Shown one piece after another: positions 1,894 through 37,182 of a DNA stretch of 64,000 bases. The position numbers and the translations under genes were made by a program. Below the pieces are notes generated by a model. The model ran no database searches. It saw only the letters and a list, made by a program, of their open reading frames with translations, and was not told the DNA's origin. Numbering within the stretch: position 1 is the stretch's first letter; each line of letters opens with the position of its first letter. This DNA is from Candidatus Niyogibacteria bacterium (GTDB lineage Bacteria; Patescibacteriota; Minisyncoccia; HO2-45-28): positions 77,466 to 141,465 of the forward strand of contig CP066691.1 of the NCBI GenBank assembly GCA_016432485.1, written 5' to 3'.

Positions 1894-2369
1894 AAACCAT
1901 TTTTGGGATTATTTTTTTAATAACGATTGGGATGACTGGTTGGTGGTTTGGTTTTTTTGATTTTGTGCCCAAAATCGGCACCCCCTTTGGCGACTTTGTC
2001 AAAAATAAAAGCGGAGAACAAAGTGCCGTGGTAATAATCCCCACAGATCCAATTGATATAGCAGATATCATTGAGAGGATAGAAAACGGCAAGACGGATG
2101 AAGAAGTACAAGATTTGTTGGATATTTATAAAGACACTTTGGTAATGGGGGATGGCAAATATTCAAATAAATGGAGGTCTAATGAGAACGAGGGCCCCAA
2201 AATTGGGATAAAAGTTAACGGTAGAACAGTAAAATGTAATTTTAATCCAGATTGGCAAAAAAGAATTGAGCTGTCGCAATTGGGCGATACTATAAATTTT
2301 TTGGGAACATTCCGTTTTATTGAATCTTGGGGGCGATACTATGTAGAAGATTGTTCCTTAACCAAATAA
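1890..2369 (+). CDS. Hypothetical membrane-anchored protein (N-terminal TM helix, 159 aa)
   Basis: ORF MKTIFGIIFLITIGMTGWWFGFF…; translationally coupled to its neighbours. No recognisable domain. Confidence 0.45.
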   Translation: MKTIFGIIFLITIGMTGWWFGFFDFVPKIGTPFGDFVKNKSGEQSAVVIIPTDPIDIADIIERIENGKTDEEVQDLLDIYKDTLVMGDGKYSNKWRSNENEGPKIGIKVNGRTVKCNFNPDWQKRIELSQLGDTINFLGTFRFIESWGRYYVEDCSLTK

Positions 2370-2377
2370 ATATTTTC

Positions 2378-6288: not shown

Positions 6289-6295
6289 AAAGTTT

Positions 6296-8989
6296 ATGGC
6301 ACTACATAAAGACTTTCCAAAAAACCCATACGCGATACTTGACCCGAATATTCGGTGGTTTCCTGCTGACGAAGATTTGCGGGAAAAAGGAGCTATTCAA
6401 AAACTTTTACCTCCTCTTGTCGCGGGTTTGCGGGAAAAAGTAAAAGAATGGCGAGATAAAAATTACGAGGGGGCAAGTAATACTTCTAAATCACTTTTGA
6501 ACTGGTGGTTCAAGGAGGAACATATTTTATATGACCAACACGGAGTATCTTCTCATTTCAAATACTATTTCGCGCAAAGAGAAGCGCTGGAAACAGTCGT
6601 ATGGCTTTATGAGGTGGCGAAAGTAAAAGATAAATACGACCTCATTCGTTACAACTCTACCGGCGTATTAAGTCCGCAAATGTTTACTGAAGAGTGGCTT
6701 CGCTTTGTGATAAAAATGGCGACTGGTGCGGGTAAGACCAAAGTAATGAGTCTAGTTGTCGCATGGGCGTATTTTCATAAAAAGTATGAGGAAGGTTCAA
6801 ATTTGGCAAAGAACTTTCTTTTAATAACGCCGAATGTCATTGTTTTTGAAAGAATAAAGAATGATTTTGAAGGATTGAAGATATTTTTTAGCGATCCTGT
6901 TTTGCCGGATAACGGCTATCACGGACAAAACTGGCAGGATGATTTTCAGATGACTCTGCATTTACAGGATGATTTGCGCAATGTTTCTGACACTGGAAAT
7001 ATATTTTTGACTAACATCCACAGAGTTTTTGAGGGTGATGTGCGCGAAGCGAGTGCAGAAGATGAGGACACTTCTCGATACTTCTTAGGCGATAAACCAG
7101 TCACAAAAACAAGCGACTCTACTGTGGATTTGGGGATGATAGTAAGAGATATCGACGAGCTTATTGTAATCAATGATGAAGCTCACCATTTGCACGATGA
7201 TAAATCAGCTTGGGTTAAATCAATTACCGACATAGACAATCGGCTTAAACAGAAAGGCGCGGGGCTATCTTTACAGCTTGACTTTACGGCTACACCAAAA
7301 AAGAACGATGGCTCCATTTTTGTGCAAACAATTTCCGACTATCCGCTTGTTGAGGCAATTCACCAAAGAGTTGTTAAAAATCCGGTTGTGCCGGACGCGG
7401 CAAGCCGAGGAAAACTGAAAGAAAATCAAAACACACTATTTAGCGAGAGATACCGAGATTATATAAATCTTGGTATTGAAGAATGGAAAAAAACATACGA
7501 AGTATTAAAACCGATGGGTAAAAAATCCATTCTTTTTATTATGACAGACGATACAAGGAATTGTGATGAGGTGGCGGAGTATATTGAAACAAGTTTTAAA
7601 GAGTTGAAAGGGGCAGTTTTGACTATACACACAAACAAGAGCGGAGAAATTTCTGAAAGTGTGTCCGGTAAAAGTAAAGAGGAATTGGATGTGCTTCGCA
7701 AACAAGCGAATGAAATTGATAGTTGGGAAAGCCCGTTCAAAGTAATTATTTCCGTAATGATGTTGAAAGAGGGTTGGGATGTAAAAAATGTAACGACAAT
7801 CGTCGGGCTACGACCTTTCGCAGCCGATTCAAAAATTCTGCCCGAACAAACTCTCGGACGAGGACTCCGTAGGATGTTTTTTGGCAGAGATGATGTTGAG
7901 GAATATGTGAGTGTTGTCGGAACTCCCGCTTTTATGGACTTTGTTGAATCAATCAAGGGCGAGGGCGTTATTCTTGAAAAGAAAGCGATGGGAACGGGAG
8001 CCAAGCCGATAGCTCCGATGGTTATTGAGGTTGATAAGGATAATCCGAAAAAGGACATTGAGAAGCTTGATATTGAGATTCCGGTGATGTCCCCTAGAAT
8101 TCAGAGGGAGTATAAAAACCTAGCCGAGCTGGATGTTTCCAAATTTGGGAATAAAAAGGTCAAAGTAAAAACATTCTCCGAAGAAGAAAAACGAGAAATC
8201 GTGTTTAAGGATGTTGTTGATGAAAAAATCCATCACACAACGATACTTTCTGGCGACATTGAACCTGATTATCAAAGCGTTATCGGATTTTTTGCGCAGG
8301 CAATAATGCGAGAACTACGGCTTTTTGGTTGCTACGATATTTTATTCGGCAAGGTAAGAGAGTTTGTGCAAAATAATATGTTTGACAGTCCCGTGAATTT
8401 ATCAGACCTCAATACTCTGCGAAATTTATCCGAGGTGGAGTATATACGGCTTATAAAAGATTCTTTCAAGAAAGCCATTAACGATCTTACAGTCGAAGAC
8501 AAAGGAGACACAGAGATAAAGAACTACATCAAAATTAGCGAAGCACGTCCTTTTGTCGTTAATGATAAATCGTATTTAATACCCAAAAAGTCTGTTTTCA
8601 ATAAGATTGTTGGCGATAGCGATTTTGAGCTAGTATTTTCTGATTTTCTCGAAAATTGTGATGATGCGATTTCTTTCGCAAAGAATTTTCAAAATAAAGA
8701 AGCGAGCGCGCTTAGAATTGAGTATAAAAATTCGGAAGGATTTATTGCTACCTACTACCCCGATTTCTTTGTTAAGAAAGATGAAAAAACGGTTTATATT
8801 ATTGAAACGAAAGGACGAGAAGAAGATGACGACAAGCTAAAATTTGAAAGACTGCAAAAGTGGTGTGAGGATGTAAATGATCGACAAAATCGGGTCGTCT
8901 ATAAAGCACTTTATATCAAACAAGAAGAATGGAAAAAAGATAAATTCAAGAATTTTGATGAGGTTGTTAGGGTGTTTGATTTAAAATAA
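6296..8989 (+). CDS. res: Type III restriction enzyme Res subunit (SF2 DEAH helicase fused to a C-terminal PD-(D/E)XK nuclease)
   Basis: Walker A MATGAGKTKV, DEAH box VINDEAHHL, motif VI QTLGRGLRR, and a C-terminal nuclease motif YYPDFFVKKDEKTVYIIETKGRE. Confidence 0.85.
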   Translation: MALHKDFPKNPYAILDPNIRWFPADEDLREKGAIQKLLPPLVAGLREKVKEWRDKNYEGASNTSKSLLNWWFKEEHILYDQHGVSSHFKYYFAQREALETVVWLYEVAKVKDKYDLIRYNSTGVLSPQMFTEEWLRFVIKMATGAGKTKVMSLVVAWAYFHKKYEEGSNLAKNFLLITPNVIVFERIKNDFEGLKIFFSDPVLPDNGYHGQNWQDDFQMTLHLQDDLRNVSDTGNIFLTNIHRVFEGDVREASAEDEDTSRYFLGDKPVTKTSDSTVDLGMIVRDIDELIVINDEAHHLHDDKSAWVKSITDIDNRLKQKGAGLSLQLDFTATPKKNDGSIFVQTISDYPLVEAIHQRVVKNPVVPDAASRGKLKENQNTLFSERYRDYINLGIEEWKKTYEVLKPMGKKSILFIMTDDTRNCDEVAEYIETSFKELKGAVLTIHTNKSGEISESVSGKSKEELDVLRKQANEIDSWESPFKVIISVMMLKEGWDVKNVTTIVGLRPFAADSKILPEQTLGRGLRRMFFGRDDVEEYVSVVGTPAFMDFVESIKGEGVILEKKAMGTGAKPIAPMVIEVDKDNPKKDIEKLDIEIPVMSPRIQREYKNLAELDVSKFGNKKVKVKTFSEEEKREIVFKDVVDEKIHHTTILSGDIEPDYQSVIGFFAQAIMRELRLFGCYDILFGKVREFVQNNMFDSPVNLSDLNTLRNLSEVEYIRLIKDSFKKAINDLTVEDKGDTEIKNYIKISEARPFVVNDKSYLIPKKSVFNKIVGDSDFELVFSDFLENCDDAISFAKNFQNKEASALRIEYKNSEGFIATYYPDFFVKKDEKTVYIIETKGREEDDDKLKFERLQKWCEDVNDRQNRVVYKALYIKQEEWKKDKFKNFDEVVRVFDLK

Positions 8990-20933: not shown

Positions 20934-22085
20934 TTATACCAATTTTTTTAACGCAATTTCCATAGCCGCTTTGCGGGGGCTGATTTTTCTTCTTATGGAC
21001 GTTTTTAAGACCAAATCCACTCCGCCACCTACTTTTTCTTTGACCAATTTAAACATTTTTTCAGCATTGTATCCTTTATATTCGGAATATGAGGATATGA
21101 CCCCGCCGGCATTGGCAATGATATCGGGCACGATTAGAACTCCCCTTCTCCAAAGTTCTTCCTCAATGTTTTCGCGCATGGGAATATTCGCGCCCTCAAC
21201 TATTATTTTGGCTTTTATTGATTTTTTATTTGTGTCGTTGATAACATCCGTAACCGACGCCGGAATTAAAATATCAATTTTTAAAGCGAAAAAACTTTTG
21301 CGTGAAATCGGACGGCCCTTTTCGCATTCTTCAAGCGATTTTCCGCAGAACTTCACTTTTTTAATGTCATTTTCATTGAGTCCCCTATCGTTATATATCG
21401 CGCCGTGCCTGTCGGCTACCGCAATTATGCGGGCTCCCATAGCGCGTAAATGTTTGAAAGCGAAACTGCCTACGTTTCCGAACCCGTCAATCGCGACCGA
21501 AGCGTCTTTTATATTCAGGCCTCTTATTTTTGCGGCAATCCGCGCGGCTTCAGCCACTCCAAATCCCGTGCTGCCCAATTCATGCGGAAGTCCGCCGAGC
21601 TCGGCCGGCTTCCCGGTAGCCGATTTTTTGTCGCGCGCGGCTTCAACGAACCAGCGCATTTCCCTTTCGCCTGTATTTATGTCCGGCCCCGCGATATATT
21701 TTGAAATTAAAAATGGTTTAATCGCCCGAGCGAAGTTTTGAACAAATTTCTTTTTTAACGCTTTTTGCCCTTTTTTGGACAAAGTCCGACTTTGTCCACT
21801 TTGTCCGGATGGAGGCCAAACGATGCCGGCTTTGGCTCCCCCAAACGGCAAACCGGCCAATGCGTTTTTAAAAGTCATGGCGCGCGCGAGCCGAAAGACC
21901 TCTTCTTCCGAAACATCCGGCGTCATTCTTACGCCTCCCTTCCCCGGTCCGAGTTTCGTATTATCTATAACCAAAAATGCCCGCATATTTATTTTCGGGT
22001 CATAAATTTTAACTACATATTCCGGACCGATATTATCTTTCTCTGTTTTCATTTGAAATAATAAGTTTTTTAAATTCTTCGACAT
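20934..22085 (-). CDS. Glu/Leu/Phe/Val dehydrogenase family protein (Leu/Val-dehydrogenase-like); carries an in-frame 9-bp tandem repeat
   Basis: GPGKGGVRM and GGAKAGIV motifs. The SGQSGQS insert is encoded by (GGACAAAGT)n at 21777-21809. Confidence 0.75.
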   Translation of the reverse strand: MSKNLKNLLFQMKTEKDNIGPEYVVKIYDPKINMRAFLVIDNTKLGPGKGGVRMTPDVSEEEVFRLARAMTFKNALAGLPFGGAKAGIVWPPSGQSGQSRTLSKKGQKALKKKFVQNFARAIKPFLISKYIAGPDINTGEREMRWFVEAARDKKSATGKPAELGGLPHELGSTGFGVAEAARIAAKIRGLNIKDASVAIDGFGNVGSFAFKHLRAMGARIIAVADRHGAIYNDRGLNENDIKKVKFCGKSLEECEKGRPISRKSFFALKIDILIPASVTDVINDTNKKSIKAKIIVEGANIPMRENIEEELWRRGVLIVPDIIANAGGVISSYSEYKGYNAEKMFKLVKEKVGGGVDLVLKTSIRRKISPRKAAMEIALKKLV

Positions 22086-22124: not shown

Positions 22125-24554
22125 TTATATTTTATGCCCGCCGAATACGGCGCGGAGCGTTGAAAGAATTTTTCCGGTAAATGACGGGCTCTTTTTTGAG
22201 CGTACACGGAAAAGATAAGACCTCTTGATAATTGGCGCGGGAACGCCGAGTTCTTTGGCGGTTTTTACCGTCCATTCTCCTTCTCCTGTTTGAGCCACCA
22301 CGCCAGACGCTTTTTTTAAGTCCTCTCCATACTTTTTGAATCCTTCCTCCAGCCACCCCGTAAGCCGCGAGGTAATAATGCTGTTTTGGTTGTACACACT
22401 CGCGACATCTTTAAGATGAAACTCAAACGGCGCCTTTTTTAATACTGAAAATCCTTCGGCCAGCGCCTGCATCATTCCGTACTCAATGCCGTTATGAATC
22501 ATTTTTGTAAAATGCCCGGCCCCAATTTTTCCCATATATCCGGAGGTCGTATCCGACATGGCGTCAAAAATCGGTTTGATTTTTTCATATATTTTTTTAT
22601 TTCCTCCCGCCATAATAGCAAATTTCCCAAGCTGAATGGAAGTCGGCCCGCCCGATACGCCAACATCAAGAAAATGAATTCCTTTTGCTCCCAATTTTAT
22701 TCCTCGGCGAACAGAGTCCTTATAGAAAGAGTTTCCTCCGTCAATTATTATATCCCCTTTCTTGAGTATCCGCGCGAGGCCTTCTTTTCCGAAAATGATT
22801 TCGTCTACGGGCTTTCCCGCGGGCCTGCCCGCCGTAGCTTTACTTTGCCCGTCCGAAGTCTTTGACGAAGGCGGGGCGGAGGCGGGAACCATAAGCCATA
22901 TAACGCGCGGAGTGGAAAGTTTCTTAACAAATTCCGGAATAGAATACGCGCCGATAATTCCATTTTTTTCAAGTTTTTTCGTAGTATCGGGAAAGTGGTC
23001 CATGCCGACAACGCGCCATCCTTTGGCTGAAAGTCGTATCGCGAGATTAGCGCCCATTTTCCCCAAACCGATAATACCGATCTCGCTCATGCGCGTTTCC
23101 GCGTTTTTATCCCTGACGCTCTGCGTATTTTGCAAGATTGCCGGCCGAGGAGTGGTCCCGGGCTTATATTTTGCGAGCGAAACGGTATTTTTATCCCACG
23201 CGCTTTCGATCGGATCGATAAATTTCCATAGCGCCGCCACCTCCCCGGGCGCTATAAAAAATGCCCGATTGCCTTCCATGGCTGCGTTGAAAATTTTTGC
23301 GTATTCTTCCACATATTGCGCCTTTTCTTTTTTTTCGTACAAAAAGAAAGAGAAGGCGCGCCTTTCAAGGGTTTGTTCAAAACCGGGTTTTTTCATCCAA
23401 AAGTAAATAATTATTTCATCATTTGGTTCAAGCCGAAAAACTATTTTATTTGGCTCGTGCGGTCCGACCTCGCAAAGATGACAAATAGCCGGATGTTTTA
23501 GCGTGAGCACTATTTCTTTACGCGCCTCGGCCATCCGTTTCCCCGCTTCCATGAATATCGGGATTCCTTTCCATCGAGGATAGCGGAGCTCGGTTTTGAG
23601 CGCAAAATATGTATCGGTGTTTGAGGCGGGACGAACTCCTTTAATATTCTCATAACCCCGATATTGCGCGCGATAGGTATTGTTTCGGACTGTTTCGGTT
23701 GTCCAGGGTGCTAAAGTTTCTAAAATTTTTGCGCGGTTTTGCCGGATAGAGTCCGCCTCTTTATTTTTAGGATATTCCATGGCAAGTACCGCAAGCATGA
23801 TTAAAAGATGATTTTGTCCGACATCGCGCAGCGCCCCGACAGCGTCGTAAAAACTCCCGCGCTCTTCCACGCCGATTGATTCATAAAGGCGAATATCAAT
23901 TCGCTCAATCATCGTATTATCCCACGCATTTTCAAAAAGGTTATTGGAAAATCTGAAATTTTCTATTCCCTGCAATATTTCTTTAAAAAGATAGTGGTCA
24001 ATTCTGTAAATCTGTTCCTCTTTGAAATATGAGGAAAGAAGCGACTGGAGCTTCCTCGCGCTTTCGGAGTCCTTTCCAAAAGGTTTTTCAATAAGCAGGC
24101 GGCTCCAGCCAAGATTTCCTCCGCAAGGAAGGTTTAATTTTACTGAGGCGAGATTCTTAAAAATTATCTCGTAAGATGACGGAGGAACGGCAAGATAAAA
24201 TAATTTATTGGCGCAAACACCCCAAGACGATTCGGCGCCCGCTATTTTTTCAAAAAGAATCCGAAAGGATTTTTTGTCCTCAAAAGTTCCGGCATGATAT
24301 GAAAATGTTTCAAAGAAACGCGAAAAATCTCTCTCTTTTATTGCCGCCCCTCCGCGCTTTATAAGGGTTTTACGGATAAATTTTTTAAATTCTTCGCGGG
24401 AAAGATTTCTTCGCGAAAATCCCATCACGGAAAAGCGGTCCGGAAAACGGCCTTGTCGGAAAAGGTGCCATAAAGAGGGAATAATTTTTTTAGCCGCAAG
24501 ATCGCCGGTCGCGCCGAATATGGTTAATATGGTCGGCGAATTTTTAATTATCAC
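22125..24554 (-). CDS. Glucose-6-phosphate dehydrogenase fused to a short-form 6-phosphogluconate dehydrogenase-like domain (zwf-gnd fusion)
   Basis: N-terminus has FGATGDLAAKK and RIDHYLFKE (G6PD). The C-terminal ~320 aa have IGLGKMGANLAIRL and the 6PGDH NAD-binding fold. One continuous ORF of 809 aa, including a ~24-aa palindromic-element insert at 22824-22886. Confidence 0.75.
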   Translation of the reverse strand: MIIKNSPTILTIFGATGDLAAKKIIPSLWHLFRQGRFPDRFSVMGFSRRNLSREEFKKFIRKTLIKRGGAAIKERDFSRFFETFSYHAGTFEDKKSFRILFEKIAGAESSWGVCANKLFYLAVPPSSYEIIFKNLASVKLNLPCGGNLGWSRLLIEKPFGKDSESARKLQSLLSSYFKEEQIYRIDHYLFKEILQGIENFRFSNNLFENAWDNTMIERIDIRLYESIGVEERGSFYDAVGALRDVGQNHLLIMLAVLAMEYPKNKEADSIRQNRAKILETLAPWTTETVRNNTYRAQYRGYENIKGVRPASNTDTYFALKTELRYPRWKGIPIFMEAGKRMAEARKEIVLTLKHPAICHLCEVGPHEPNKIVFRLEPNDEIIIYFWMKKPGFEQTLERRAFSFFLYEKKEKAQYVEEYAKIFNAAMEGNRAFFIAPGEVAALWKFIDPIESAWDKNTVSLAKYKPGTTPRPAILQNTQSVRDKNAETRMSEIGIIGLGKMGANLAIRLSAKGWRVVGMDHFPDTTKKLEKNGIIGAYSIPEFVKKLSTPRVIWLMVPASAPPSSKTSDGQSKATAGRPAGKPVDEIIFGKEGLARILKKGDIIIDGGNSFYKDSVRRGIKLGAKGIHFLDVGVSGGPTSIQLGKFAIMAGGNKKIYEKIKPIFDAMSDTTSGYMGKIGAGHFTKMIHNGIEYGMMQALAEGFSVLKKAPFEFHLKDVASVYNQNSIITSRLTGWLEEGFKKYGEDLKKASGVVAQTGEGEWTVKTAKELGVPAPIIKRSYLFRVRSKKSPSFTGKILSTLRAVFGGHKI

Positions 24555-24569
24555 GGTTTATATATTCTC

Positions 24570-25340
24570 CTAGAGATAATCCAATAAACGGTCATAATCT
24601 ATAAATTGAAAAATCTTATAACCGTAAGAAATAAGAAGGCCGATATTGCCAGAAACCAAAAGTATGCCGAGGAAAATAAGAAAGATGCCGCCGATTACGG
24701 AAACGATATTAAGATATTTAGATATATTTTGGACATAACGGGAGGCCGATCCAATGCCTGCGGCAATAAGTAAAAATGGTATCGCGAGTCCCGCCGAGAA
24801 AATAGTAAGCAATAATCCGCCCTGGAGCGCGCTGGTTGAGGTTGAGGCCAATAAGAGCACCGAGCCTAAGATCGGGCCAACGCACGGCGTCCACCCAAAC
24901 GCAAAAGCGCTGCCTAAAATGAACGAGTTGGACGCGCGCCCTCGTTTCAGCAAAGCGGGAGTCTTAATTTGAAATTCGCGCTGTAAAAAAGGCAATTTCA
25001 AAATATTGAGCATAAACAGTCCGAAGATGATAACGAAAATTCCGCCGATTCTTCCAAGCCATAATCTATAAGGAGCAAGAAACCTGGCGCCGACAAAACC
25101 GATGAGCGTTCCCATAACGATAAAAACCGCGCTAAACCCAAGCATAAAGAAAAAGCCGTTGAGAAAAATTTTCCATCGGGCCTGCTTGGCTTTAGCCGGG
25201 TCCTTGAGGTCTTCTAAAGAGGAGCCGCTGATGAAACCCAAATATCCCGGCACCAAAGGAAGGGTGCATGGGGCAAGAAATGTAAGAATGCCGGCAATAA
25301 AAGCCGGAACTATTAACGCGGCAATTGAAAGCTCAAGCAC
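24570..25340 (-). CDS. ccdA: Cytochrome c biogenesis/thiol-disulfide transporter CcdA/DsbD-family membrane protein
   Basis: TFLAPCTLPLVPGYLGFISG and a second conserved Cys (WTPCVGP). Confidence 0.75.
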   Translation of the reverse strand: MLELSIAALIVPAFIAGILTFLAPCTLPLVPGYLGFISGSSLEDLKDPAKAKQARWKIFLNGFFFMLGFSAVFIVMGTLIGFVGARFLAPYRLWLGRIGGIFVIIFGLFMLNILKLPFLQREFQIKTPALLKRGRASNSFILGSAFAFGWTPCVGPILGSVLLLASTSTSALQGGLLLTIFSAGLAIPFLLIAAGIGSASRYVQNISKYLNIVSVIGGIFLIFLGILLVSGNIGLLISYGYKIFQFIDYDRLLDYL

Positions 25341-25797
25341 GATGGTTTTTATAAAATTTTATAAGCGCTTTACGTTGAACGGGCTCTAAGTGAATCGAGG
25401 GTCTTTGTTTTTTAATAAATTTTTCTGCATTCGCCGGAGACATCCCGCGTGTTTTTATAAGATATGCCGCCATCATAGTGGGCGCTCTGCCGTGGCCGTT
25501 TTTGCAGTGCAGATATATCTTTTGCTTCATAGCGACCAAATTTTTAAGGGTCAAGACGCCGAATTCCAGTTGTTCCTGTTTGGGAGCGGTGTGGTTTTTG
25601 ACGGGAATCCACGCGTAAAAATAAGCCCCGAAAGGAGAATCAATCTTCTCTTCCTCAAGAGAAACATCGGCCATTATGCCCTTTTTCTTAAGTTCCCCGT
25701 TAAAATGCGTCTGACAGCACAAATTCGTGCCGATATAAATTCCGTCGGTGATATAGTTATATTCAAATTTAGGAGCTCCGTGTTTTTCTTTAGACAT
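25333..25797 (-). CDS. Dual-specificity/tyrosine phosphatase-like protein (HCxxGxxR)
   Basis: HCKNGHGRAPTMMAAYL catalytic loop. Confidence 0.6.
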   Translation of the reverse strand: MSKEKHGAPKFEYNYITDGIYIGTNLCCQTHFNGELKKKGIMADVSLEEEKIDSPFGAYFYAWIPVKNHTAPKQEQLEFGVLTLKNLVAMKQKIYLHCKNGHGRAPTMMAAYLIKTRGMSPANAEKFIKKQRPSIHLEPVQRKALIKFYKNHRA

Positions 25798-25821
25798 ATT
25801 TTTTACACATCTCCCGCTTTT

Positions 25822-26355
25822 TTATTTGTTAATCAGTTCTTCTATTTTACTTTTAATCTCATCCAATTTCATCGGTCCTCTCTTGTGAATAACTATGTTT
25901 TTTTCAGGGTCAACAAATATTGTTTCCGGCATTGAAAATCCGCCGATTGATTTATAAAAAGAATCAGATGGGTCGAGCAAGAAAACCAGCTGGTTGGTGG
26001 TTCCTTGCCGGTCGGTATATCCCTTTGCGACACCCAATGATTCGGCGCGGTCAATAGCGATAATCACGACTTTATCGCCAAACTCCTTTTGTGCTCTTGC
26101 GAAATCAGGAAGCTCTTCGCGGCAAAACGGACACCATGCCGCCCATGAGTTTATAACCAAAGGTTTGCCCGAAAAATCCGTGAGTCGAACGGTATTCCCG
26201 CCGTAATCCTGTAAAGCAAAATCGGGGGCTTTTTCGGATTGAGCCGTTTGAGCCGTTTGTTTTGATTCTTCGGGGGCGTTTTTCGCGCGAATTACAAGCC
26301 ATCCGACGCCCCCCAGAATCAAAAGCCCTATGATTATTGCGAATAATTTATTCAT
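25822..26355 (-). CDS. TlpA/ResA-like thiol:disulfide oxidoreductase (secreted, thioredoxin fold)
   Basis: WAAWCPFCREELP CxxC motif and an N-terminal signal/TM. Start set at MNKLFAII. Confidence 0.75.
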   Translation of the reverse strand: MNKLFAIIIGLLILGGVGWLVIRAKNAPEESKQTAQTAQSEKAPDFALQDYGGNTVRLTDFSGKPLVINSWAAWCPFCREELPDFARAQKEFGDKVVIIAIDRAESLGVAKGYTDRQGTTNQLVFLLDPSDSFYKSIGGFSMPETIFVDPEKNIVIHKRGPMKLDEIKSKIEELINK

Positions 26356-26369
26356 TTTTATTATCGCGG

Positions 26370-26531
26370 CTATTTGCAACCGCAGTCGCAATGGCCGCCT
26401 TCGTGGTGTTCGTGGCCGCAATGCTCGCATTTCTTATGCTCCACTGGATGATTGTGTTCTTTATGCTCATCACAAGGGCACTCGCAAGCCATGCATTTTT
26501 CGTGTTTTTCGTCGTGTGTATCTTCGTGCAT
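26370..26531 (-). CDS. Unannotated 53-aa Cys/His-rich putative metal-binding protein (MHEDTHDEKHEKCMACECPCDEHKEHNHPVEHKKCEHCGHEHHEGGHCDCGCK)
   Basis: Hand-translated from the minus strand; absent from the ORF track because it is under 60 aa. It has 10 Cys and 11 His in CxC/CxxC/HxxH patterns. It sits between the thioredoxin and tlpA genes on the same strand. The two plus-strand ORFs over it look spurious. Confidence 0.55.
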   Translation of the reverse strand: MHEDTHDEKHEKCMACECPCDEHKEHNHPVEHKKCEHCGHEHHEGGHCDCGCK

Positions 26532-26577
26532 ATTATTTTTTTTAATTAATTAATGATTTGTTTCGGGCAGCCCGACC

Positions 26578-26835
26578 TTATTTTGTGCCTGCCCATTCCT
26601 TTAATTCTTCATAGGGGGCCTCTCCGCAGATAAAGGCGTCAGAGTCGGTATTAATGAAAAACGGAACGCCGCCGCACCGGCCCTTATCATATTCTTTCAT
26701 CTTTTTTGCGTTTTCTTCGTTATGCCAAACTTCATATTTTTCAACTTTCAAACCGGCTTCTTTTTCCAGCCGCTCCACCAACGGCATCATCTTAATGCAG
26801 TGCGGACACTCTTTTCCGTAAAAATCTATAAGCAT
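26578..26835 (-). CDS. Thioredoxin/glutaredoxin-like protein (CPHC active site)
   Basis: FYGKECPHCIKMMP. Confidence 0.7.
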   Translation of the reverse strand: MLIDFYGKECPHCIKMMPLVERLEKEAGLKVEKYEVWHNEENAKKMKEYDKGRCGGVPFFINTDSDAFICGEAPYEELKEWAGTK

Positions 26836-26845
26836 AATTGATTTT

Positions 26846-27880
26846 TTATTTTAATAATTCTGTATCAGGGTGAGCGGCAACCCACGAAAACCAAAATGAG
26901 CCAAATGGGTTGATGCGCAGAAGCGTGCCATCAGTTTTTTTCTCGAAAATCCGCACGGCGTCAATTTCTTTTTCGTACTTCGCAATAATCGTTTTTCCCT
27001 CAAAGCTATCTTCAATTTCACCGACTTTTTTCACCGCCTCCGGCCAATATGCCTTAGCTTTTCCATTTATTACGATGCCGAGAACAAAGTCCTTATCGCT
27101 TAAGCGGTCATCTTTTTTACCAACTGGGAAATAAGTTCCCGGGGTGGTGTAGTAATCGCCGTACGGGTCCTGCCCGTAAAACCGCGTTGTTCCCGTATCT
27201 CGCGAGAGCACTTCTCCTGTCGGGTGGAGCTTCCGCCATTCGCCGAATCGAATCTGGTCTGACTGCAAAACGGCGAGATGCGTTCCGGTTTTTTCTCCGA
27301 CAATCGCTTCGCCCAAAATCTGCGACCACAATGAATCGGTTTTTCGGTCATACATTACCAAGTTTGAATTCCATAATTTACCCGAAGTGCCGAATTCCAC
27401 TCGTTCTCCCTCCACAACGGGGTCAAAAACTATTCCGGACAAGCATAGCGGGCAATAGGTTACAAGAACCCGTTTCCCATTTATGGTGTCATTTACAATC
27501 TCGTGCCAGACCAAAATTTGAAACGGATAAAAACGGCTGACATTGCCCATTTCAAGCGCAAGGCCTGGTTCGGCGTCCGATAACTGCTTCGATGCCTCAC
27601 CAACCGAAATAAATTTGGGATTATCAATGGAAGGAATCCCGTCTTTTGGCGGACCTCCGCCGAGGATAGAGTCCAGAGGAACGCTATGTTTTACGCCGTC
27701 AGTAACCATAATTTCTTTTTCTACTTCACTGCCGTTGTTTTGAATCATAATTATTTCTTTTTTAACCTCTCCACCTTGAGGCAAATTAAAGTCGTTTTTA
27801 AATATAACACGGGACAGAACAAGCGCGGCTACAACCGCAACCCCAACCACTATTATAATTGTAATTACCTTTAAATTCAT
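26846..27880 (-). CDS. DUF3179 family protein
   Basis: Conserved TYCPLC motif and an N-terminal TM. Start set at MNLKV to avoid overlap with the upstream gene. Confidence 0.55.
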   Translation of the reverse strand: MNLKVITIIIVVGVAVVAALVLSRVIFKNDFNLPQGGEVKKEIIMIQNNGSEVEKEIMVTDGVKHSVPLDSILGGGPPKDGIPSIDNPKFISVGEASKQLSDAEPGLALEMGNVSRFYPFQILVWHEIVNDTINGKRVLVTYCPLCLSGIVFDPVVEGERVEFGTSGKLWNSNLVMYDRKTDSLWSQILGEAIVGEKTGTHLAVLQSDQIRFGEWRKLHPTGEVLSRDTGTTRFYGQDPYGDYYTTPGTYFPVGKKDDRLSDKDFVLGIVINGKAKAYWPEAVKKVGEIEDSFEGKTIIAKYEKEIDAVRIFEKKTDGTLLRINPFGSFWFSWVAAHPDTELLK

Positions 27881-27884
27881 CTTT

Positions 27885-28418
27885 TTATTCAATAAGCGAG
27901 GCAACGTCTGATTCCCGAATGTCTCCGGGGATGGTGCGGACCAGATTACCGTTTATGTCTATCAAGAAATGCGTGTTGGTGTACTGAATGCCGAAAACAT
28001 TTGAGGCCCGGCTGAAAGGGTCAAGCGCTATCGGAAAATTTATTCCGCGAGATTCTATAAAATCCGCGACGGTTGACTCATTTTCGTGCAGATTAACTCC
28101 TATCACTTCCACTTTGTCTTTATATTTTTCATAAAAACGATTTAGATTCGGCATGTCTCTTCGGCAATTCGGGCACCACGAAGCCCAAAAATCAACCACC
28201 ACCGGCTTCTTGCCCCTAAACTCCGATAGCGTTATGGTTCCTCCGCCCAGCTTTTGCAGCTTAAAATCCGGCGCGGAGCTTTCTTGCAAAGCTGTTCCGG
28301 ACGCCCCCGAATGCACCGAGGCGCTTTGTGAGGCGGTATTGCCGCCATATGACCTCCCAAACGCTATCAGGCCGATTGCGGCAATAATCGCGCCTATAAT
28401 TAATATTTTGTTTCTCAT
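27885..28418 (-). CDS. TlpA-like thiol:disulfide oxidoreductase (redoxin)
   Basis: FWASWCPNCRRDMP. Confidence 0.75.
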   Translation of the reverse strand: MRNKILIIGAIIAAIGLIAFGRSYGGNTASQSASVHSGASGTALQESSAPDFKLQKLGGGTITLSEFRGKKPVVVDFWASWCPNCRRDMPNLNRFYEKYKDKVEVIGVNLHENESTVADFIESRGINFPIALDPFSRASNVFGIQYTNTHFLIDINGNLVRTIPGDIRESDVASLIE

Positions 28419-28433
28419 TTAGATTTAATAATT

Positions 28434-28745
28434 TTATTTAATAATTTGCATCAGCTGTTTGACCATGGAATTATCCTTTTTTAATTTATAACAAACCATT
28501 TGTCCCATTCTTGTTTTTTCGACCAGTTCAAGCATTTCCAGAACTCTCAACTGCTGGGATGCCGCGGATACCGTAATATCAAAAATGTTCGCCACATCGG
28601 TTACGCAAATATCGTGGTTCTCCGAAAGCAATTTGAAAATCCGAAATCTGCCAGGATCTCCCAGCGCGCCAAGAATGAGGGGCATCCGGTCCATATCGCT
28701 TGACAATTCTTTTTTTATCCTGTTTACCTGTTCTTTTGTAAGCAT
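28434..28745 (-). CDS. ArsR/SmtB-family transcriptional regulator (two-Cys type)
   Basis: wHTH VTDVANIFDITVSAASQQLRVLEMLELV. Cys in ICVTD and in C-terminal VCYK. Confidence 0.8.
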   Translation of the reverse strand: MLTKEQVNRIKKELSSDMDRMPLILGALGDPGRFRIFKLLSENHDICVTDVANIFDITVSAASQQLRVLEMLELVEKTRMGQMVCYKLKKDNSMVKQLMQIIK

Positions 28746-28803
28746 GTTAATTAAGTAATTGCATAATTACTTAATCCTACTCCCAAGAAACTTTTGTGTC
28801 AAC
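28746..28803 (-). promoter_or_regulatory. Promoter of the arsR-redoxin operon (minus strand: -35 TTGACA, 17-nt spacer, -10 TAGGAT) followed by an 11-bp inverted-repeat operator attaagtaatt-N4-aattacttaat that overlaps the start codon
   Basis: Read on the reverse complement of 28746-28803. Confidence 0.55.
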
Positions 28804-28835
28804 CCTGCCTGCCGGCAGACAGGTGTGGATAAGCC

Positions 28836-28861
28836 CCGCCACTTAAAAAGAGCGCCCGAAA
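28836..28861 (-). terminator. Rho-independent terminator after the aroE-like gene (stem agagcgc/gcgctct + T-tract on the minus strand)
   Basis: aaagagcgcccgaaaggagcgctct…, read in minus orientation, is followed by ttttaagt. Confidence 0.5.
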
Positions 28862-28877
28862 GGAGCGCTCTATAAAT

Positions 28878-29933
28878 TTAAGAACCCGCGGCTTGCTTCA
28901 TAACTTCGGCCACTTGTTCCTTGGTGATATTTTTTGCTTCCAAAACTTTTTGATTCACGAGCCAGAAGGCCTCTATTGCCTGATTCAAGACCATCGGTTT
29001 GCCGTCAAGCGTGGAAAACCCGGCCAATTTTGCCTCGCGAATGGTTGCGGTATCTTGATTGCGCAGCATTACATCCGAAATAATTGTTTCTCTATGCATA
29101 CTCTCCATAATTTGTTTTGCTTCTTTGAGATTATCGGCAATATGTTCGGGAGTTGCCGGCAACTCAATCGTTCCAAGAGCCGAATATTGGTCAAGGGGTG
29201 ATGTAGGATCATCGATTACGGAAATGACGAGGTCCGCATCGCGCACTTCATCCTGAATTAGTTCTCGTCCTCCAAACCGCGCGATATTTTTGCGGAAGTA
29301 AGTATTGACGCGCTCAGCTAAGTCCTCCGCTTTAGCCGCGGTTCTATTCAAAATCATAAGGTTGGCCCCTTCTTTAGCAAGAGCAAATGAGATTGCATTG
29401 GCAGTACCGCCGCCTCCTAAAATCACAACCTTTTTACCGCCTATTTGTTCTCCTCGCTCGCCTAATTTTTCTTTCACGCTTTGCGCATAACCAAGACCGT
29501 CTGTATTATAGCCCCTCAATATTCCGTTTTCTTCTTTAACCACAACATTTATGGCTTGCATCTCGCGCGCCAAAGGATCGACTTCGTCAATAATTTTCCA
29601 CGCGCGATCCTTAAATCCCACTCCCACGTCGCCACCAAGATACTTTCGGTCTTTTTTGAAAGAATTGAATATTACTTCAGAATTTTCCGGATCGCCGGCT
29701 AAACGAATGTTTCTGGTGTCAAAGCCGAAATGTTCATAGACGGCATTCCAAAGAAATGGCGTTCTTGCCTGGTAATCTTTATTGGCAATGCCAAGCGCAA
29801 ATTCCGGAAAATCAAGCATTTTGGGATTTTCTTTTGCATTTTCCCCGATTTTTACAATGCCCGATTCAATTAAAGTGTGCACTTGTTCCATATGTTGTTT
29901 TTCCTCCGGGTGTTCCATAGAAAATTTTATCAT
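28878..29933 (-). CDS. Shikimate/quinate dehydrogenase family protein (AroE-like)
   Basis: GYNTDGLG motif and GGGGTANAI Rossmann. Confidence 0.6.
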   Translation of the reverse strand: MIKFSMEHPEEKQHMEQVHTLIESGIVKIGENAKENPKMLDFPEFALGIANKDYQARTPFLWNAVYEHFGFDTRNIRLAGDPENSEVIFNSFKKDRKYLGGDVGVGFKDRAWKIIDEVDPLAREMQAINVVVKEENGILRGYNTDGLGYAQSVKEKLGERGEQIGGKKVVILGGGGTANAISFALAKEGANLMILNRTAAKAEDLAERVNTYFRKNIARFGGRELIQDEVRDADLVISVIDDPTSPLDQYSALGTIELPATPEHIADNLKEAKQIMESMHRETIISDVMLRNQDTATIREAKLAGFSTLDGKPMVLNQAIEAFWLVNQKVLEAKNITKEQVAEVMKQAAGS

Positions 29934-34863: not shown

Positions 34864-35289
34864 CTAGATTAATTTTTTAACCTCTTCTTCTAATTGGCCT
34901 TCGACTCCAGGACCAAGAATATTAAAAACAATGTCGCCGTTTTTATCAATTAAGTAATACGCCGGCCAATTTTCCACTTTGTACGCTTTCCAATTTTGCC
35001 TTGCGTTATCGGTAAGCACCGGAAAATCCACTTTCAAAACTTTCATTTGTTTCTTGAGGGCTTCGATGTCCCGCTCAAAAGTTGTTTCCGGAGAATGAAC
35101 ACCAAGCACTATCAACCCCCTGTCTTTGTATTTCTTTTCAATCTCCATAATGCCAGGCAAATCCTGCTGGCACCAAGAGCACATAAAAGTCCAGAATTTA
35201 ATTAAAACCACTTTGCCTTTCAGGTCGGCGAGTTTAAGCGGCTCTGAATTGAGCCATTTTTCGCCATCGGTTATAAATTCCGGCGCCCT
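34864..35289 (-). CDS. Thioredoxin-fold redoxin (AhpC/TSA/TlpA-like, CSWC)
   Basis: KFWTFMCSWCQQDLP. Start set at MRAPEF, 7 nt downstream of the merA-like stop. The longer ORF-track start would overlap merA by ~100 nt. Confidence 0.65.
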   Translation of the reverse strand, partial: RAPEFITDGEKWLNSEPLKLADLKGKVVLIKFWTFMCSWCQQDLPGIMEIEKKYKDRGLIVLGVHSPETTFERDIEALKKQMKVLKVDFPVLTDNARQNWKAYKVENWPAYYLIDKNGDIVFNILGPGVEGQLEEEVKKLI

Positions 35290-35296
35290 CATATAT

Positions 35297-36823
35297 TTAT
35301 TCCGTACAGCAGGAAAGTTTGTTGACATCCTTTCGGAATGACTGCGCGACCCATTTGATTGATTCGGCCATAGTGGGAAAGATAAATGTATTTTCAATTA
35401 TATCATCTAATTTCATACGATGCTTGATAATGAAACTGGCAACGGAAATGATTTCATCGGCTCTGGCGCCCGCCATATGGATACCGACGACTTCCTCGGT
35501 TTTTGAATCAATTACCATTTTAATTAAGCCGTCCGCCGCTTCTAGAATATGCGCCTTTGGCACAAGTTCCAAACTCAAGGTGCGGCAGCTGCATACTAGC
35601 CCCGTTTGCTTGACGATTTGAGCGTCAGTCAGGCCGACGCTCGCCAGCGGCGGGTCGGTGAAGATGGCGTGGGGTGCCGCCCGGAAATCAACTTTGATGC
35701 CCTTATTTTCCAAAAGATTAGACGCGGCAACAAAACCCTCTCTGCCCGCGACGGTTTCCAGTTTAAGATTAACCTCTTCGCCCGACTGATCCACCACATC
35801 GCCGGCGGCAAATATGTGAGGTAGGTCTGTTTGTAGAAATTCATTGGTTGCGACTCCGCCTCTTTCGCCGACACGAACACCGATATGCTCAAGATTTAAT
35901 GATTGGGTATTGGCTCTTACTCCTGATGCAACCAGTATTTTTTCTGCCTCAATAATAATTTCTTTCTTGCCCGCCGTAGCTTTACTGCGTCCTTCCGTAG
36001 CCTTTGGCGAAGGAGGAGCGGAGGCGGGGTCGCCAACCTCGACAGTTGCTTTAATAAGATTGCCGTTATGCTCAACACCCTTGGTTTTAGCGGAAGTATA
36101 AATGGTTGTGCCCTCTTTTTCTAGTTTCTTTTTCAGAAAATCTGAAAGCTCCGGCTCTTCGCGGTCGGCTATTTTGTCCGCATACTGCAAAACCGTAACC
36201 TTCGTTCCGAAACGATTGTAAATTTGGGAAAATTCAAGACCCAACGGCCCCCCGCCCAAAATAATCATTGATTTCGGCAACTCCTTCAAACTCAAGGCCT
36301 CGATATTGGTGAGATACGCGACTTTATCCAGCCCATCAATCGGAGGAATAAAAGTGGAAGAACCGGTTGAAATCAAAAATTTTTCTCCCGTAATTTTCTC
36401 CCCGCCCGCCGTAGCTTTAGCGGAGGCGGGGCCATTTATTTCAACCGTGTGCTCGTCAATAAATTTCGCGTCTCCTTCTTTAAGAGTTACATAAACCAGA
36501 AATTTAAGAGTTCCGGCATACGCCTTTCCCTGAAGTTTGCGGATTAGCGCGTCTTTGGATTCAACGACTTTTTTAAAATCCAAATCCGGCACACTGCCGG
36601 CTACGCCGTCATACTTGCTGTAACGCGCGTTCCAATAGGATTCGGCCACAGTAAGCAATCTTTTTGACGGCATACATCCGACATTAATGCAGGTTCCGCC
36701 CAAAGGAACTTTTCCGCCCGATATCATTAAAGTTTTAATCTTCAAAGAATCCGCCTTGATGGCAGCCGCGAAACCCGCGGCTCCGCCCCCGATGATGATA
36801 AACTGATAGTCGTAATTTTTCAT
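35297..36823 (-). CDS. Mercuric reductase-like pyridine nucleotide-disulfide oxidoreductase (no NmerA domain) carrying two in-frame palindromic-element insertions
   Basis: GGTCINVGCMPSK active site and a C-terminal vicinal Cys pair …KLSCCTE, which is a MerA hallmark. Inserts PASAKATAGG (36402-36432) and ASAPPSPKATEGRSKATAGKK (35969-36029). Confidence 0.65.
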   Translation of the reverse strand: MKNYDYQFIIIGGGAAGFAAAIKADSLKIKTLMISGGKVPLGGTCINVGCMPSKRLLTVAESYWNARYSKYDGVAGSVPDLDFKKVVESKDALIRKLQGKAYAGTLKFLVYVTLKEGDAKFIDEHTVEINGPASAKATAGGEKITGEKFLISTGSSTFIPPIDGLDKVAYLTNIEALSLKELPKSMIILGGGPLGLEFSQIYNRFGTKVTVLQYADKIADREEPELSDFLKKKLEKEGTTIYTSAKTKGVEHNGNLIKATVEVGDPASAPPSPKATEGRSKATAGKKEIIIEAEKILVASGVRANTQSLNLEHIGVRVGERGGVATNEFLQTDLPHIFAAGDVVDQSGEEVNLKLETVAGREGFVAASNLLENKGIKVDFRAAPHAIFTDPPLASVGLTDAQIVKQTGLVCSCRTLSLELVPKAHILEAADGLIKMVIDSKTEEVVGIHMAGARADEIISVASFIIKHRMKLDDIIENTFIFPTMAESIKWVAQSFRKDVNKLSCCTE

Positions 36824-37182
36824 ACTTTTAATCGCCCCTTAAGAATTTGCACCAAGGGAGTTTTCCTTAATTTATAATACACATTGCGGAAATCTCGACG
36901 GCGCTCCACAATGTCCGCTTTTTGTAATTTTTTAAGGGTGTGTGAGACGGCAGAAATGGAAATGCCGACCACCTCGGCAATGTCTCCGACGGACAGTTCC
37001 TTGTGCCGGCACAAAAGATAACAAATTTTCAGACGCGTCGGGTCGCCGACCATATTAAATTCCCGCGCGCAGGCAATAATGGCGTTTTTATCGTTAAGTT
37101 CCTTTTTGAGATTATTTTTATTCCTACTTGAGCTCACGTTCAAATGATAACAAAATAAATATAAAAGTACAACAAGCATCAA
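36820..37182 (-). CDS. ArsR/SmtB-family metalloregulator (CxC in alpha-helix: KICYLLC); start uncertain, may be at MVGDP (37053)
   Basis: wHTH SVGDIAEVVGISISAVSHTLKKL. Overlaps the merA-like start by 4 nt. The N-terminal 43 codons of the ORF contain promoter-like AT-rich sequence. Confidence 0.6.
   Translation of the reverse strand: MMLVVLLYLFCYHLNVSSSRNKNNLKKELNDKNAIIACAREFNMVGDPTRLKICYLLCRHKELSVGDIAEVVGISISAVSHTLKKLQKADIVERRRDFRNVYYKLRKTPLVQILKGRLKV

Follow-up and report, generated by a model that had tools for sequence, protein, structure and literature searches.

A conserved Cys/His-rich micro-protein gene in a thiol-redox operon of Candidatus Niyogibacteria: a candidate metallothionein-like metal binder

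The small gene and its product

The 64,000-nucleotide (nt) stretch of Candidatus Niyogibacteria bacterium analysed here (GenBank assembly GCA_016432485.1, contig CP066691.1, positions 77,466 to 141,465 of the forward strand), referred to below as the window, contains a run of thiol-redox genes on the minus strand, among which lies a small gene for a protein rich in Cys and His. The small gene occupies 26370..26531 on the minus strand, with an ATG start, 53 codons and a TAG stop, and its protein reads MHEDTHDEKHEKCMACECPCDEHKEHNHPVEHKKCEHCGHEHHEGGHCDCGCK. An initial annotation had proposed this open reading frame (ORF), and its coordinates and strand were borne out by translation. The gene begins 46 nt after a thioredoxin-like gene, and its stop codon is followed 14 nt later by the start of a tlpA gene; all three are on the minus strand, and the placement between thioredoxin and tlpA genes given in that annotation also held. 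The evidence below indicates a genuine gene, the product of which is a candidate metal binder of the metallothionein-like kind.

The predicted protein of 53 amino acids (aa), 6.18 kDa and isoelectric point 5.8 is acidic, with 14 Asp plus Glu residues. It contains 9 Cys (17%), 12 His and 6 Lys, and has no Phe, Trp, Tyr, Leu, Ile, Ser or Arg. Ten Cys and eleven His had been counted previously, each off by one, with the correct total of 21. The three motifs reported at the same time were all found in the translation, CMACECPC at residues 13-20, CEHCGH at residues 35-40 and HCDCGC at residues 47-52. The composition, described then as strongly non-random, proved to be so: 21 of the 53 residues are Cys or His, compared with 9 in the runner-up 53-residue stretch among the window's 1183 open frames of 30 codons or more, and the binomial probability of at least 21 of 53 was about 2e-16, given a window background of 3.9% Cys plus His. 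Both a signal peptide and a hydrophobic segment are missing from the small protein, which should therefore stay in the cytoplasm.

Conservation of the reading frame

A single-sequence search of 5.8 billion proteins returned the identical protein on two Logan contigs, together with two relatives. Profile searches extended the family to 24 clusters at 50% identity among 1.84 billion cluster representatives and to 122 clusters at 90% identity in the 5.8-billion protein set, all with lengths of 40-88 aa. DNA scans located 10 loci in GTDB species genomes and 58 in JGI metagenomes, which were fetched with 4 loci of the first relatives and the 2 identical Logan loci; an intact frame with the motif was present in 72 of these 74 loci. 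All family members bearing a protein name were called “hypothetical protein”. The named hosts belong to the candidate phyla radiation (CPR), ultra-small bacteria known from groundwater, namely Azambacteria, Spechtbacteria, Sungiibacteriota, Harrisonbacteria, Yanofskybacteria, Magasanikbacteria, Parcubacteria and Saccharibacteria, apart from two metagenome-assembled genomes labelled Gammaproteobacteria (locus L010) and Neomarinimicrobiota (L011).

The minus-strand frame of the small gene is under purifying selection. Among 28 distinct coding sequences of the two-module form found in the window (modules A and B, described below), the mean proportion of nonsynonymous differences (pN) was 0.25 and that of synonymous differences (pS) was 0.82, the latter being saturated. 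The median ratio of nonsynonymous to synonymous rates (dN/dS) was 0.13 over the 29 unsaturated pairs. Variability at codon positions 1, 2 and 3 was 0.165, 0.163 and 0.388, the third position being 2.4 times as variable as the other two. With the frame kept in 72 loci and 122 clusters, conservation came out on the side of a gene, and the loss of frame in relatives that the initial annotation had named as counter-evidence did not refute it. The small ORF is almost certainly a real protein-coding gene, and its translation is predicted from the sequence.

Two antisense ORFs on the plus strand, at 26330..26545 and 26337..26549, cover the same DNA. These ORFs, the shortness of the small gene and its lack of a Shine-Dalgarno sequence could suggest that the minus-strand frame is open by chance, is itself antisense or is left over from a larger gene, and that the real feature is a plus-strand ORF or a non-coding RNA. 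This explanation is effectively refuted by the dN/dS of 0.13 and the third-position wobble in the minus-strand frame, as well as by the 122 stand-alone clusters. The antisense frames are open only through the composition of the sense strand. The codons TTA, CTA and TCA are missing from the sense frame, in which no Leu or Ser codons are used, and therefore the codon-aligned antisense frame cannot contain a stop. The two antisense frames were open in 31 of 55 and 47 of 55 relatives because of the same sense-strand composition; they are not genes, and their earlier description as shadows was well founded. An Rfam scan of 24000..29500 up to E=1 gave a sole match, to CrcZ, with 18 bits against a gathering score of 95, which was regarded as noise.

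Modular organization of the protein family

Alignments of the relatives divided the small protein into four parts, all read on the minus strand. The N-terminal tail (residues 1-12, MHEDTHDEKHEK, 26496..26531) carries three extra His residues at i, i+4 and i+8 and differs among relatives. Module A (residues 13-28, CMACECPCDEHKEHNH, 26448..26495) contains 4 Cys and 3 His. It is followed by a variable linker (residues 29-34, PVEHKK, 26430..26447) and by module B (residues 35-52, CEHCGHEHHEGGHCDCGC, 26376..26429), which contains 5 Cys and the conserved His40 and His42.

The consensus of module A over 172 copies was C-M-A-C-[SE]-C-P-C-[ED]-[ME]-H-K-E-H-[NT]-H. Residues C13, A15, C16, C18, P19, C20, H23, E25, H26 and H28 were conserved in at least 90% of 120 sequences. 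Of these copies, 164 had His, 7 had Cys and 1 had Arg at the final position of the module, and such an exchange of His and Cys is of the kind expected at a metal ligand. The consensus of module B was C-x2-C-G-H-x-H-K-x-D-G-x-C-D-C-G-C, with an internal spacing of 9 residues in 60 of 89 members. The linker between the modules varied from 1 to 24 aa across the family while the modules stayed fixed. Among the members with one copy of each module, all 9 Cys together with H23 and H26 were invariant or nearly so, and H28, H40 and H42 formed the majority consensus.

The commonest architecture was A-B, the form found in the window, and A-A, A-A-B and A-A-A-B forms were present as well. Other forms carried an extra N-terminal CxxC element, either MSCGSCGT... 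or FVCKSCGS...TCCG. The second of these, followed by module A, defined a sub-family in loci L012-L014, L016, L063, L064, L067, L068 and L071-L074. The family as a whole contained 14.7% Cys, 12.0% Lys, 11.8% Glu and 9.8% His, with only 0.5% Phe plus Trp plus Tyr, 0.5% Arg and 3.7% Leu plus Ile plus Val.

No hydrophobic core is possible with this composition, and it would therefore fall to metal ions to organise the fold. The 16 residues of module A contribute 4 Cys and 3 His, and the 18 residues of module B contribute 5 Cys and 2 His. These approximately 14 conserved ligands in about 40 residues are far above the need of one structural zinc site, which argues for the binding of more than one or two metals. 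Binding of metal by the small protein through its Cys/His residues is very probable judging from these features. The AlphaFold models of the small protein had a pLDDT (predicted local distance difference test) of 66.6 with 16 sequences and 64.9 with 120 sequences, and this low confidence fits a metal-dependent fold.

The small protein could instead be a structural zinc-finger or zinc-ribbon micro-protein, in which one or two structural Zn ions support protein contacts and no metal is stored; it would then serve as an adaptor or regulator of the thioredoxin-like protein, or of the CcdA or ArsR proteins encoded in the same operon. Module B resembles two zinc knuckles (CxxCG ... CxCGC), and sub-threshold matches to zinc models occurred among 120 family members (zf-like in 5, YnfU in 2 and the HVO_0758 mu-protein in 1). 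The spacing of 3-14 nt to tlpA in many loci suggests stoichiometric co-expression. However, the seven conserved ligands in each module of 16-18 residues exceed the need of a zinc knuckle, and the variation in the copies of the modules (one to three of A, none or one of B) and in the linker (1-24 aa) would be unusual for a single fixed interaction surface. The window protein itself matched no zinc-finger model. We regard a structural zinc protein as a credible but unlikely explanation.

The knuckles of module B (CxxCG...C-x-C) also loosely recall rubredoxin, and the operon encodes an electron-transfer pathway; on these grounds one could imagine a small iron-containing carrier of electrons, with a rubredoxin-like Fe(Cys)4 site or a small Fe-S cluster, that feeds the thioredoxin/CcdA pathway. 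It is highly improbable, since no rubredoxin or ferredoxin model was matched at E<=1, module B is entirely missing from the A-A forms, and the aromatic residues conserved in rubredoxins are absent from the small protein. To our knowledge, the Cys spacing CxxCxCxC corresponds to no known Fe-S motif, which also counts against an iron carrier.

Organization of the operon

The small gene is the fifth gene of a tightly packed minus-strand operon, in which the intergenic distances range from overlaps of 8 or 20 nt to a gap of 46 nt. The first gene (28434..28745, minus strand, as are all genes of the operon) encodes an ArsR/SmtB-family regulator, recognised by Pfam HTH_5 (4.2e-10) and NCBIfam HTH_metalloreg (66.2 bits with a cut-off of 55). 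It is followed by the upstream copy of a membrane-anchored TlpA-like oxidoreductase (27885..28418, identified by Pfam scan) and by a membrane-anchored DUF3179 protein with a CPLC motif (26846..27904, Pfam DUF3179, 8.6e-88). Selenoprotein forms of DUF3179 with UxxC/T have been listed (PMC9312934). The fourth gene (26578..26835) encodes a small cytoplasmic thioredoxin-like protein of 85 aa with a CPHC motif, which passed the Pfam Thioredoxin cut-off of 23.5 bits with 23.7 bits (E=5e-5).

Directly downstream of the small gene lies the gene for a membrane-anchored TlpA/ResA-like thiol:disulfide oxidoreductase with the motif WAAWCPFC (25822..26355, Pfam Redoxin/AhpC-TSA, about 1e-20). A mechanical ORF of 202 aa at 25822..26430 (minus strand) ran upstream into the 3' end of the small gene and represents an over-extended tlpA; the gene itself starts with the ATG at 26355 and encodes 177 aa, according to the gene call on the identical Logan contig L005 and to the sequence. 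The next genes encode a cytoplasmic protein with a dual-specificity-phosphatase fold and an HCX5R motif (25333..25797, Pfam DSPc, 2.3e-14) and a CcdA/DsbD-type transmembrane electron transporter (24570..25340, Pfam DsbD_TM, 1.7e-16). A fused glucose-6-phosphate dehydrogenase and 6-phosphogluconate dehydrogenase (Zwf-Gnd, 809 aa, 22125..24554) starts 15 nt downstream of ccdA, and glutamate dehydrogenase (20934..22085) comes after it, both on the minus strand.

Promoter, operator and intercistronic motif

A canonical promoter, TTGACA-17-TAGGAT, was located at 28802..28774 on the minus strand, downstream of a terminator-like hairpin at the end of the preceding gene. A perfect 11-4-11 inverted repeat, ATTAAGTAATT-N4-AATTACTTAAT (28750..28775, minus strand), abuts or overlaps the -10 element and presumably serves as the ArsR operator. 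It occurs only once in the window, the chance expectation being 0, and the promoter and repeat were conserved upstream of the arsR orthologues in five related loci (L021, L024, L034, L044 and L056). The initial annotation had described a same-strand, tightly spaced thiol-redox operon under an ArsR-family regulator, and this description agrees with the gene order, in which the ArsR-family gene comes first, and with a promoter that overlaps the inverted repeat and is kept in relatives. Alignment of the ArsR orthologues revealed two conserved Cys, C47 at the position equivalent to the alpha3 helix (ICVTD) and C85 in the wing. Control of the operon by ArsR, with binding to the operator and release from it, is predicted from this arrangement. 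Upstream of the small gene itself, the operator half-site had only a match with one mismatch, in the low-complexity TTAATTAATT, no better than chance.

A different element precedes the small gene. The conserved intercistronic motif TAAGGTCGG (26572..26580, minus strand) includes the TAA stop of the thioredoxin-like gene and stands 41 nt before the ATG of the small gene. Its general form is (T)AAAGGTCG(A/G), located directly after or overlapping the stop codon of the upstream gene, and the distance to the ATG was mostly 35-41 nt with an A/T-rich spacer in 33 distinct upstream regions of the small gene. The string AGGTCG occurred in 32 of 60 distinct 90-nt upstream regions, compared with 0.027 expected per region. 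The same motif was found before DoxX, glutaredoxin-like and 122-aa membrane-protein genes in related clusters, and it was not enriched across the window. The AAAGGTCGA motif was tried as a sigma-70 promoter, as a Shine-Dalgarno sequence and as a hairpin, and none of these fitted; an RNA-processing site, a standby site and an alternative promoter element are among its possible identities.

Gene context in related loci

The gene context was counted in 60 loci that extended at least 600 nt downstream and, for the other side, in 60 loci that included upstream sequence. In 40 of 60 loci, the next gene recognised on the strand of the small gene was orthologous to the downstream tlpA of the window, often at the short gap given above. 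Upstream, the nearest recognised gene on the same strand encoded DUF3179 in 23 of 60 loci and a thioredoxin-like protein in 8 of 60, together 31 of 60. The recurrent set was ArsR-TlpA-DUF3179-...-TlpA-phosphatase-CcdA. The fused Zwf-Gnd was also linked to the cluster in L009, L013, L023, L055, L059, L064 and L072, and its linkage in several loci suggests a dedicated NADPH supply. Genes added to the cluster in relatives encoded DoxX (24 loci), glutaredoxin-like proteins (12), thioredoxin reductase (10), DUF3105 (10) and DsbA (7), and weak MerT-like and MerC-like membrane proteins, both below the Pfam cut-offs, were present in related clusters. The DUF3105 protein came directly after the small gene in 10 loci. 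In 13 loci, the small gene was located about 40 nt after a gene for a two-pass membrane protein of 122 aa (MQNMKSM...) without a Pfam match, and the inspected examples of this arrangement all belonged to the FVCKSCGS...TCCG sub-family.

Outside the canonical cluster, the small gene was again found beside ArsR and thioredoxin (Trx) or glutaredoxin (Grx) genes in L065, L048 and L062. In L040, L041 and L043, which are near-identical contigs and count as one independent observation, an ArsR-like gene was followed by the small gene, a gene for a secreted protein of 143 aa, a second ArsR gene and a gene for a His-containing membrane protein of 83 aa. A fragment of an ABC-3 (Pfam PF00950) transporter permease was located upstream of the first ArsR-like gene in L041.

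This context bears on a rather improbable alternative, in which the small protein is a redox-active thiol or zinc-thiolate buffer or switch. Its nine Cys would be a sacrificial or signalling target of oxidants, electrophiles or sulfane sulfur, the thioredoxin-like protein would re-reduce them, and metal would be secondary. A Trx or Grx gene stands directly upstream in the window as well as in L065, L048 and L062; TrxB, DoxX, DsrE and rhodanese genes occur in related clusters, and ArsR has a conserved Cys pair, as in thiol-based sensors. The invariant His residues and the exchange of His for Cys at a ligand position point to metal coordination, not to thiol chemistry alone. A redox switch also overlaps with a metallothionein-like protein and does not exclude it.

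The same neighbourhoods speak against the precursor of a ribosomally made, post-translationally modified Cys-rich peptide, which a small Cys-rich product might bring to mind. No radical-SAM enzyme, cyclodehydratase, lanthipeptide synthetase, peptidase or exporter was located nearby in the window or among the recurrent clusters of related loci. The sequence lacks a leader/core organisation and is highly charged and His-rich, and we consider such a precursor extremely improbable.

Comparison with known protein families

Our results showed that the small protein has the size (53 aa and 6.18 kDa, with a family range of 40-88 aa) of the metallothionein class, which is below about 10 kDa. Its 17% Cys, arranged as CxxCxCxC, CxxC and CxCxC, exceeds the approximately 15% in CxC and CxxC motifs typical of the class, and the class features of few aromatic residues and more Lys than Arg are present too (no Phe, Trp or Tyr; 6 Lys and no Arg). 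Bacterial metallothioneins contain about 16% Cys (PMC13578184 Table 1). As far as the sequence can tell, the small protein is metallothionein-like, and multi-metal thiolate clusters are a predicted property. The initial annotation had called it metallothionein- or metallochaperone-like, which is in keeping with the 14 conserved ligand positions, the His/Cys exchange, the lack of a hydrophobic core and the duplication of modules.

The closest comparison is with SmtA/BmtA of Synechococcus (PF02069, PDB 1JJD). Both proteins are cytosolic, of about 55 aa, have 9 Cys in addition to His ligands and contain more Lys than Arg. The Cys residues are grouped 4+2+3 with similar gaps. Both genes are linked to an ArsR/SmtB-family repressor with an inverted-repeat operator, and the repression of SmtA by the ArsR-family SmtB provides a precedent for the ArsR linkage of the small gene (PMC7387436). 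The differences are considerable. The aromatic/hydrophobic core of SmtA is absent from the window protein, which is far richer in His and acidic residues and is modular with a variable copy number. The small gene belongs to a long redox operon, whereas SmtA belongs to a divergent two-gene unit, and the window ArsR is without the alpha5 site of SmtB. The searches spoke against membership in the SmtA/BmtA family, with no Pfam match at E<=1, an hhalign probability of 0.1% and no PDB profile match at E<=10. The shared 4+2+3 layout is a resemblance and not homology, given the same hhalign probability. A SmtA-like zinc-finger fold with a hydrophobic/aromatic core did not apply either, the protein having no aromatic residues, no Leu or Ile and no fold match.

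The copper metallothionein MymT of Mycobacterium tuberculosis, also 53 aa long, is likewise small, Cys-rich, cytosolic and stress-induced. Its regulator is of a different type. MymT did not turn up in the searches with the family profile, in which no direct homology comparison was made. The Hpn and Hpn-like proteins of Helicobacter are small cytoplasmic nickel-storage proteins dominated by His, with few Cys and some acidic residues. They share with the window protein the character of a small cytoplasmic His-rich metal store or buffer with some Cys and acidic residues, but Hpn is mostly poly-His, whereas the window protein has fixed and spaced Cys/His motifs, and no homology to Hpn was detected in any search run.

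Zinc-finger micro-proteins with C(P)xCG knuckles, represented by Haloferax HVO_0758 (PF23137), are also below 70 aa and have CxxC-type knuckles, as in the CxxCG of module B. However, only 1 of 120 family members touched the PF23137 model (E=0.015), and the density of ligands in the small protein is about twice that of a zinc finger. In searches with curated zinc-ribbon and zinc-finger models, the window protein had 0 matches, and those among the 120 members were scattered and sub-threshold.

The operon as a whole resembles the CcdA/ScsB-TlpA envelope reducing systems, such as the pneumococcal CcdA-Etrx-MsrAB and Scs systems, in which CcdA and surface TlpA-like proteins are fed by cytoplasmic thioredoxin. 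The Scs system is tied to copper stress and tolerance. None of these systems is known to include a Cys/His-rich micro-protein of the cytoplasm, a DUF3179 protein or a Zwf-Gnd fusion. A “thioredoxin-metallothionein chimera” of Runella aurantiaca (PMC13578184) was not used as support for a link between thioredoxin and metallothionein. Its N-terminal half is 96% identical to enterobacterial TrxA and its C-terminal half 98% identical to Synechococcus SmtA, with a 56-residue linker, and this pattern would also fit an expression-vector fusion in the assembly.

The family matches no described protein family at the level of sequence and has no Pfam or NCBIfam model. Literature searches on the motif strings, on metallothionein with Patescibacteria and on CcdA/TlpA in CPR returned nothing on it.

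Proposed function

With moderate confidence, we propose that the small gene is a translated gene for a small, acidic, cytoplasmic, metallothionein-like metal binder that is co-expressed with an envelope thiol-reducing pathway. Transcription of the small gene and of the complete reductive pathway would start jointly at an ArsR-controlled promoter near 28800. Electrons would pass from NADPH (Zwf-Gnd) to thioredoxin, then to CcdA and finally to the surface TlpA-like and DUF3179 thiol oxidoreductases, a route proposed because of the established knowledge of CcdA/DsbD-TlpA systems. Thiol-reactive stress would free ArsR from its operator, and the envelope thiol-reducing machinery and the small protein would be made together.

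The two autonomous ligand modules would hold metal ions and organise the fold of the small protein, with multi-metal thiolate/imidazole sites suited to the thiophilic or borderline ions Zn(II), Cu(I), Cd(II), Hg(II) or Ni(II). The mixture of Cys and His, the conserved Met beside the first Cys and the acidic charge did not single out one metal. The small protein may capture thiophilic metal ions in the cytosol, as a sink or buffer, and so keep them from poisoning the CxxC relay. Alternatively, its duty may be to hold the zinc that oxidised thiolates release. Its own thiols could be kept reduced by the adjacent thioredoxin. Metal binding, the identity of the metal and the buffering role are all predictions.

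Several results weigh against a metallothionein-like metal binder. The neighbours of the small gene are redox genes and not metal transporters, and no heavy-metal exporter was found among the ten large window ORFs screened, in which the sole P-type ATPase was not of the heavy-metal type. The classical metal sites of ArsR proteins (alpha3N CxC and alpha5 DxHx10HxxE) were not found in the window ArsR; with only two conserved Cys and no classical metal site, its effector could therefore be an oxidant or a sulfur species and not a metal. A Shine-Dalgarno sequence was absent before the small gene, and likewise before the arsR, tlpA and thioredoxin-like genes of the operon. Scans of the window protein with Pfam and NCBIfam gave no family, with no Pfam match at E<=1, and scans of 16 and 120 family members gave no family either, with scattered sub-threshold zinc-ribbon noise only. 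A profile search of all PDB chains at E<=10 gave no match. Foldseek against the PDB gave a single meaningless match at E=8 and no fold match for the low-confidence model. Neither these searches nor the hhalign comparison with SmtA revealed sequence or profile similarity to any metallothionein family.

A doubtful, more far-reaching version holds that the small protein is a functional component of the CcdA-TlpA-DUF3179 pathway or hands metal to a nearby core mercuric reductase, and that the family is a new, CPR-centred metallothionein lineage with repeatable Cys4His3 and Cys5His2 modules. As such a component, it would, for instance, capture Hg, Cu or Cd at the cytoplasmic face and hand it off, for example to the core MerA without NmerA that is encoded 9 kb away, or it would gate the export of reducing power by metal status, and it would be expressed via the conserved AAAGGTCGA intercistronic signal of its own. 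The mercuric reductase MerA (35297..36823, minus strand; TIGR02053, 472.7 bits with a cut-off of 454.45) combines the GGTCINVGCMPSK active site with the LSCC pair at its C-terminus and has no NmerA domain. Its gene follows a second ArsR-family gene (36820..37182) and is followed by a third gene for a TlpA/ResA-like protein (34864..35397), both on the minus strand. A mercury-specific role of the small protein was not supported by synteny, MerA orthologues being absent from the 74 related loci; the flavoprotein disulfide reductases in those loci were distant ones only, in L014, L061 and L062.

Other features of the window

A likely restriction-modification or defence block is located at 2327..8989 on the plus strand; its products are an N6/N4 DNA methylase of 771 aa, an AAA_15/AbiEii-like ATPase of 549 aa and a ResIII helicase-nuclease of 897 aa. 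On the minus strand, 52063..54480 encodes a type IV coupling ATPase of 805 aa that is HerA/TrwB-like. The P-type ATPase mentioned above (889 aa, 60768..63437, minus strand) has Cation_ATPase_N/C domains and is of the alkali/alkaline-earth type and not of the heavy-metal P1B type.

Significance

The small gene is a concrete case of a conserved micro-protein missed by length cut-offs. Bacterial metallothioneins are rare, and as of 2020 only SmtA and MymT had a studied function (PMC7387436). The peptide is short enough for synthesis, which makes the central claim cheaply testable. If the proposed function is true, the family would be a third, unrelated and modular family of bacterial metallothioneins, apparently centred on CPR and located inside a conserved operon for envelope thiol reduction. 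The family would then also open a first way into the metal and thiol homeostasis of organisms that do not grow in isolation.

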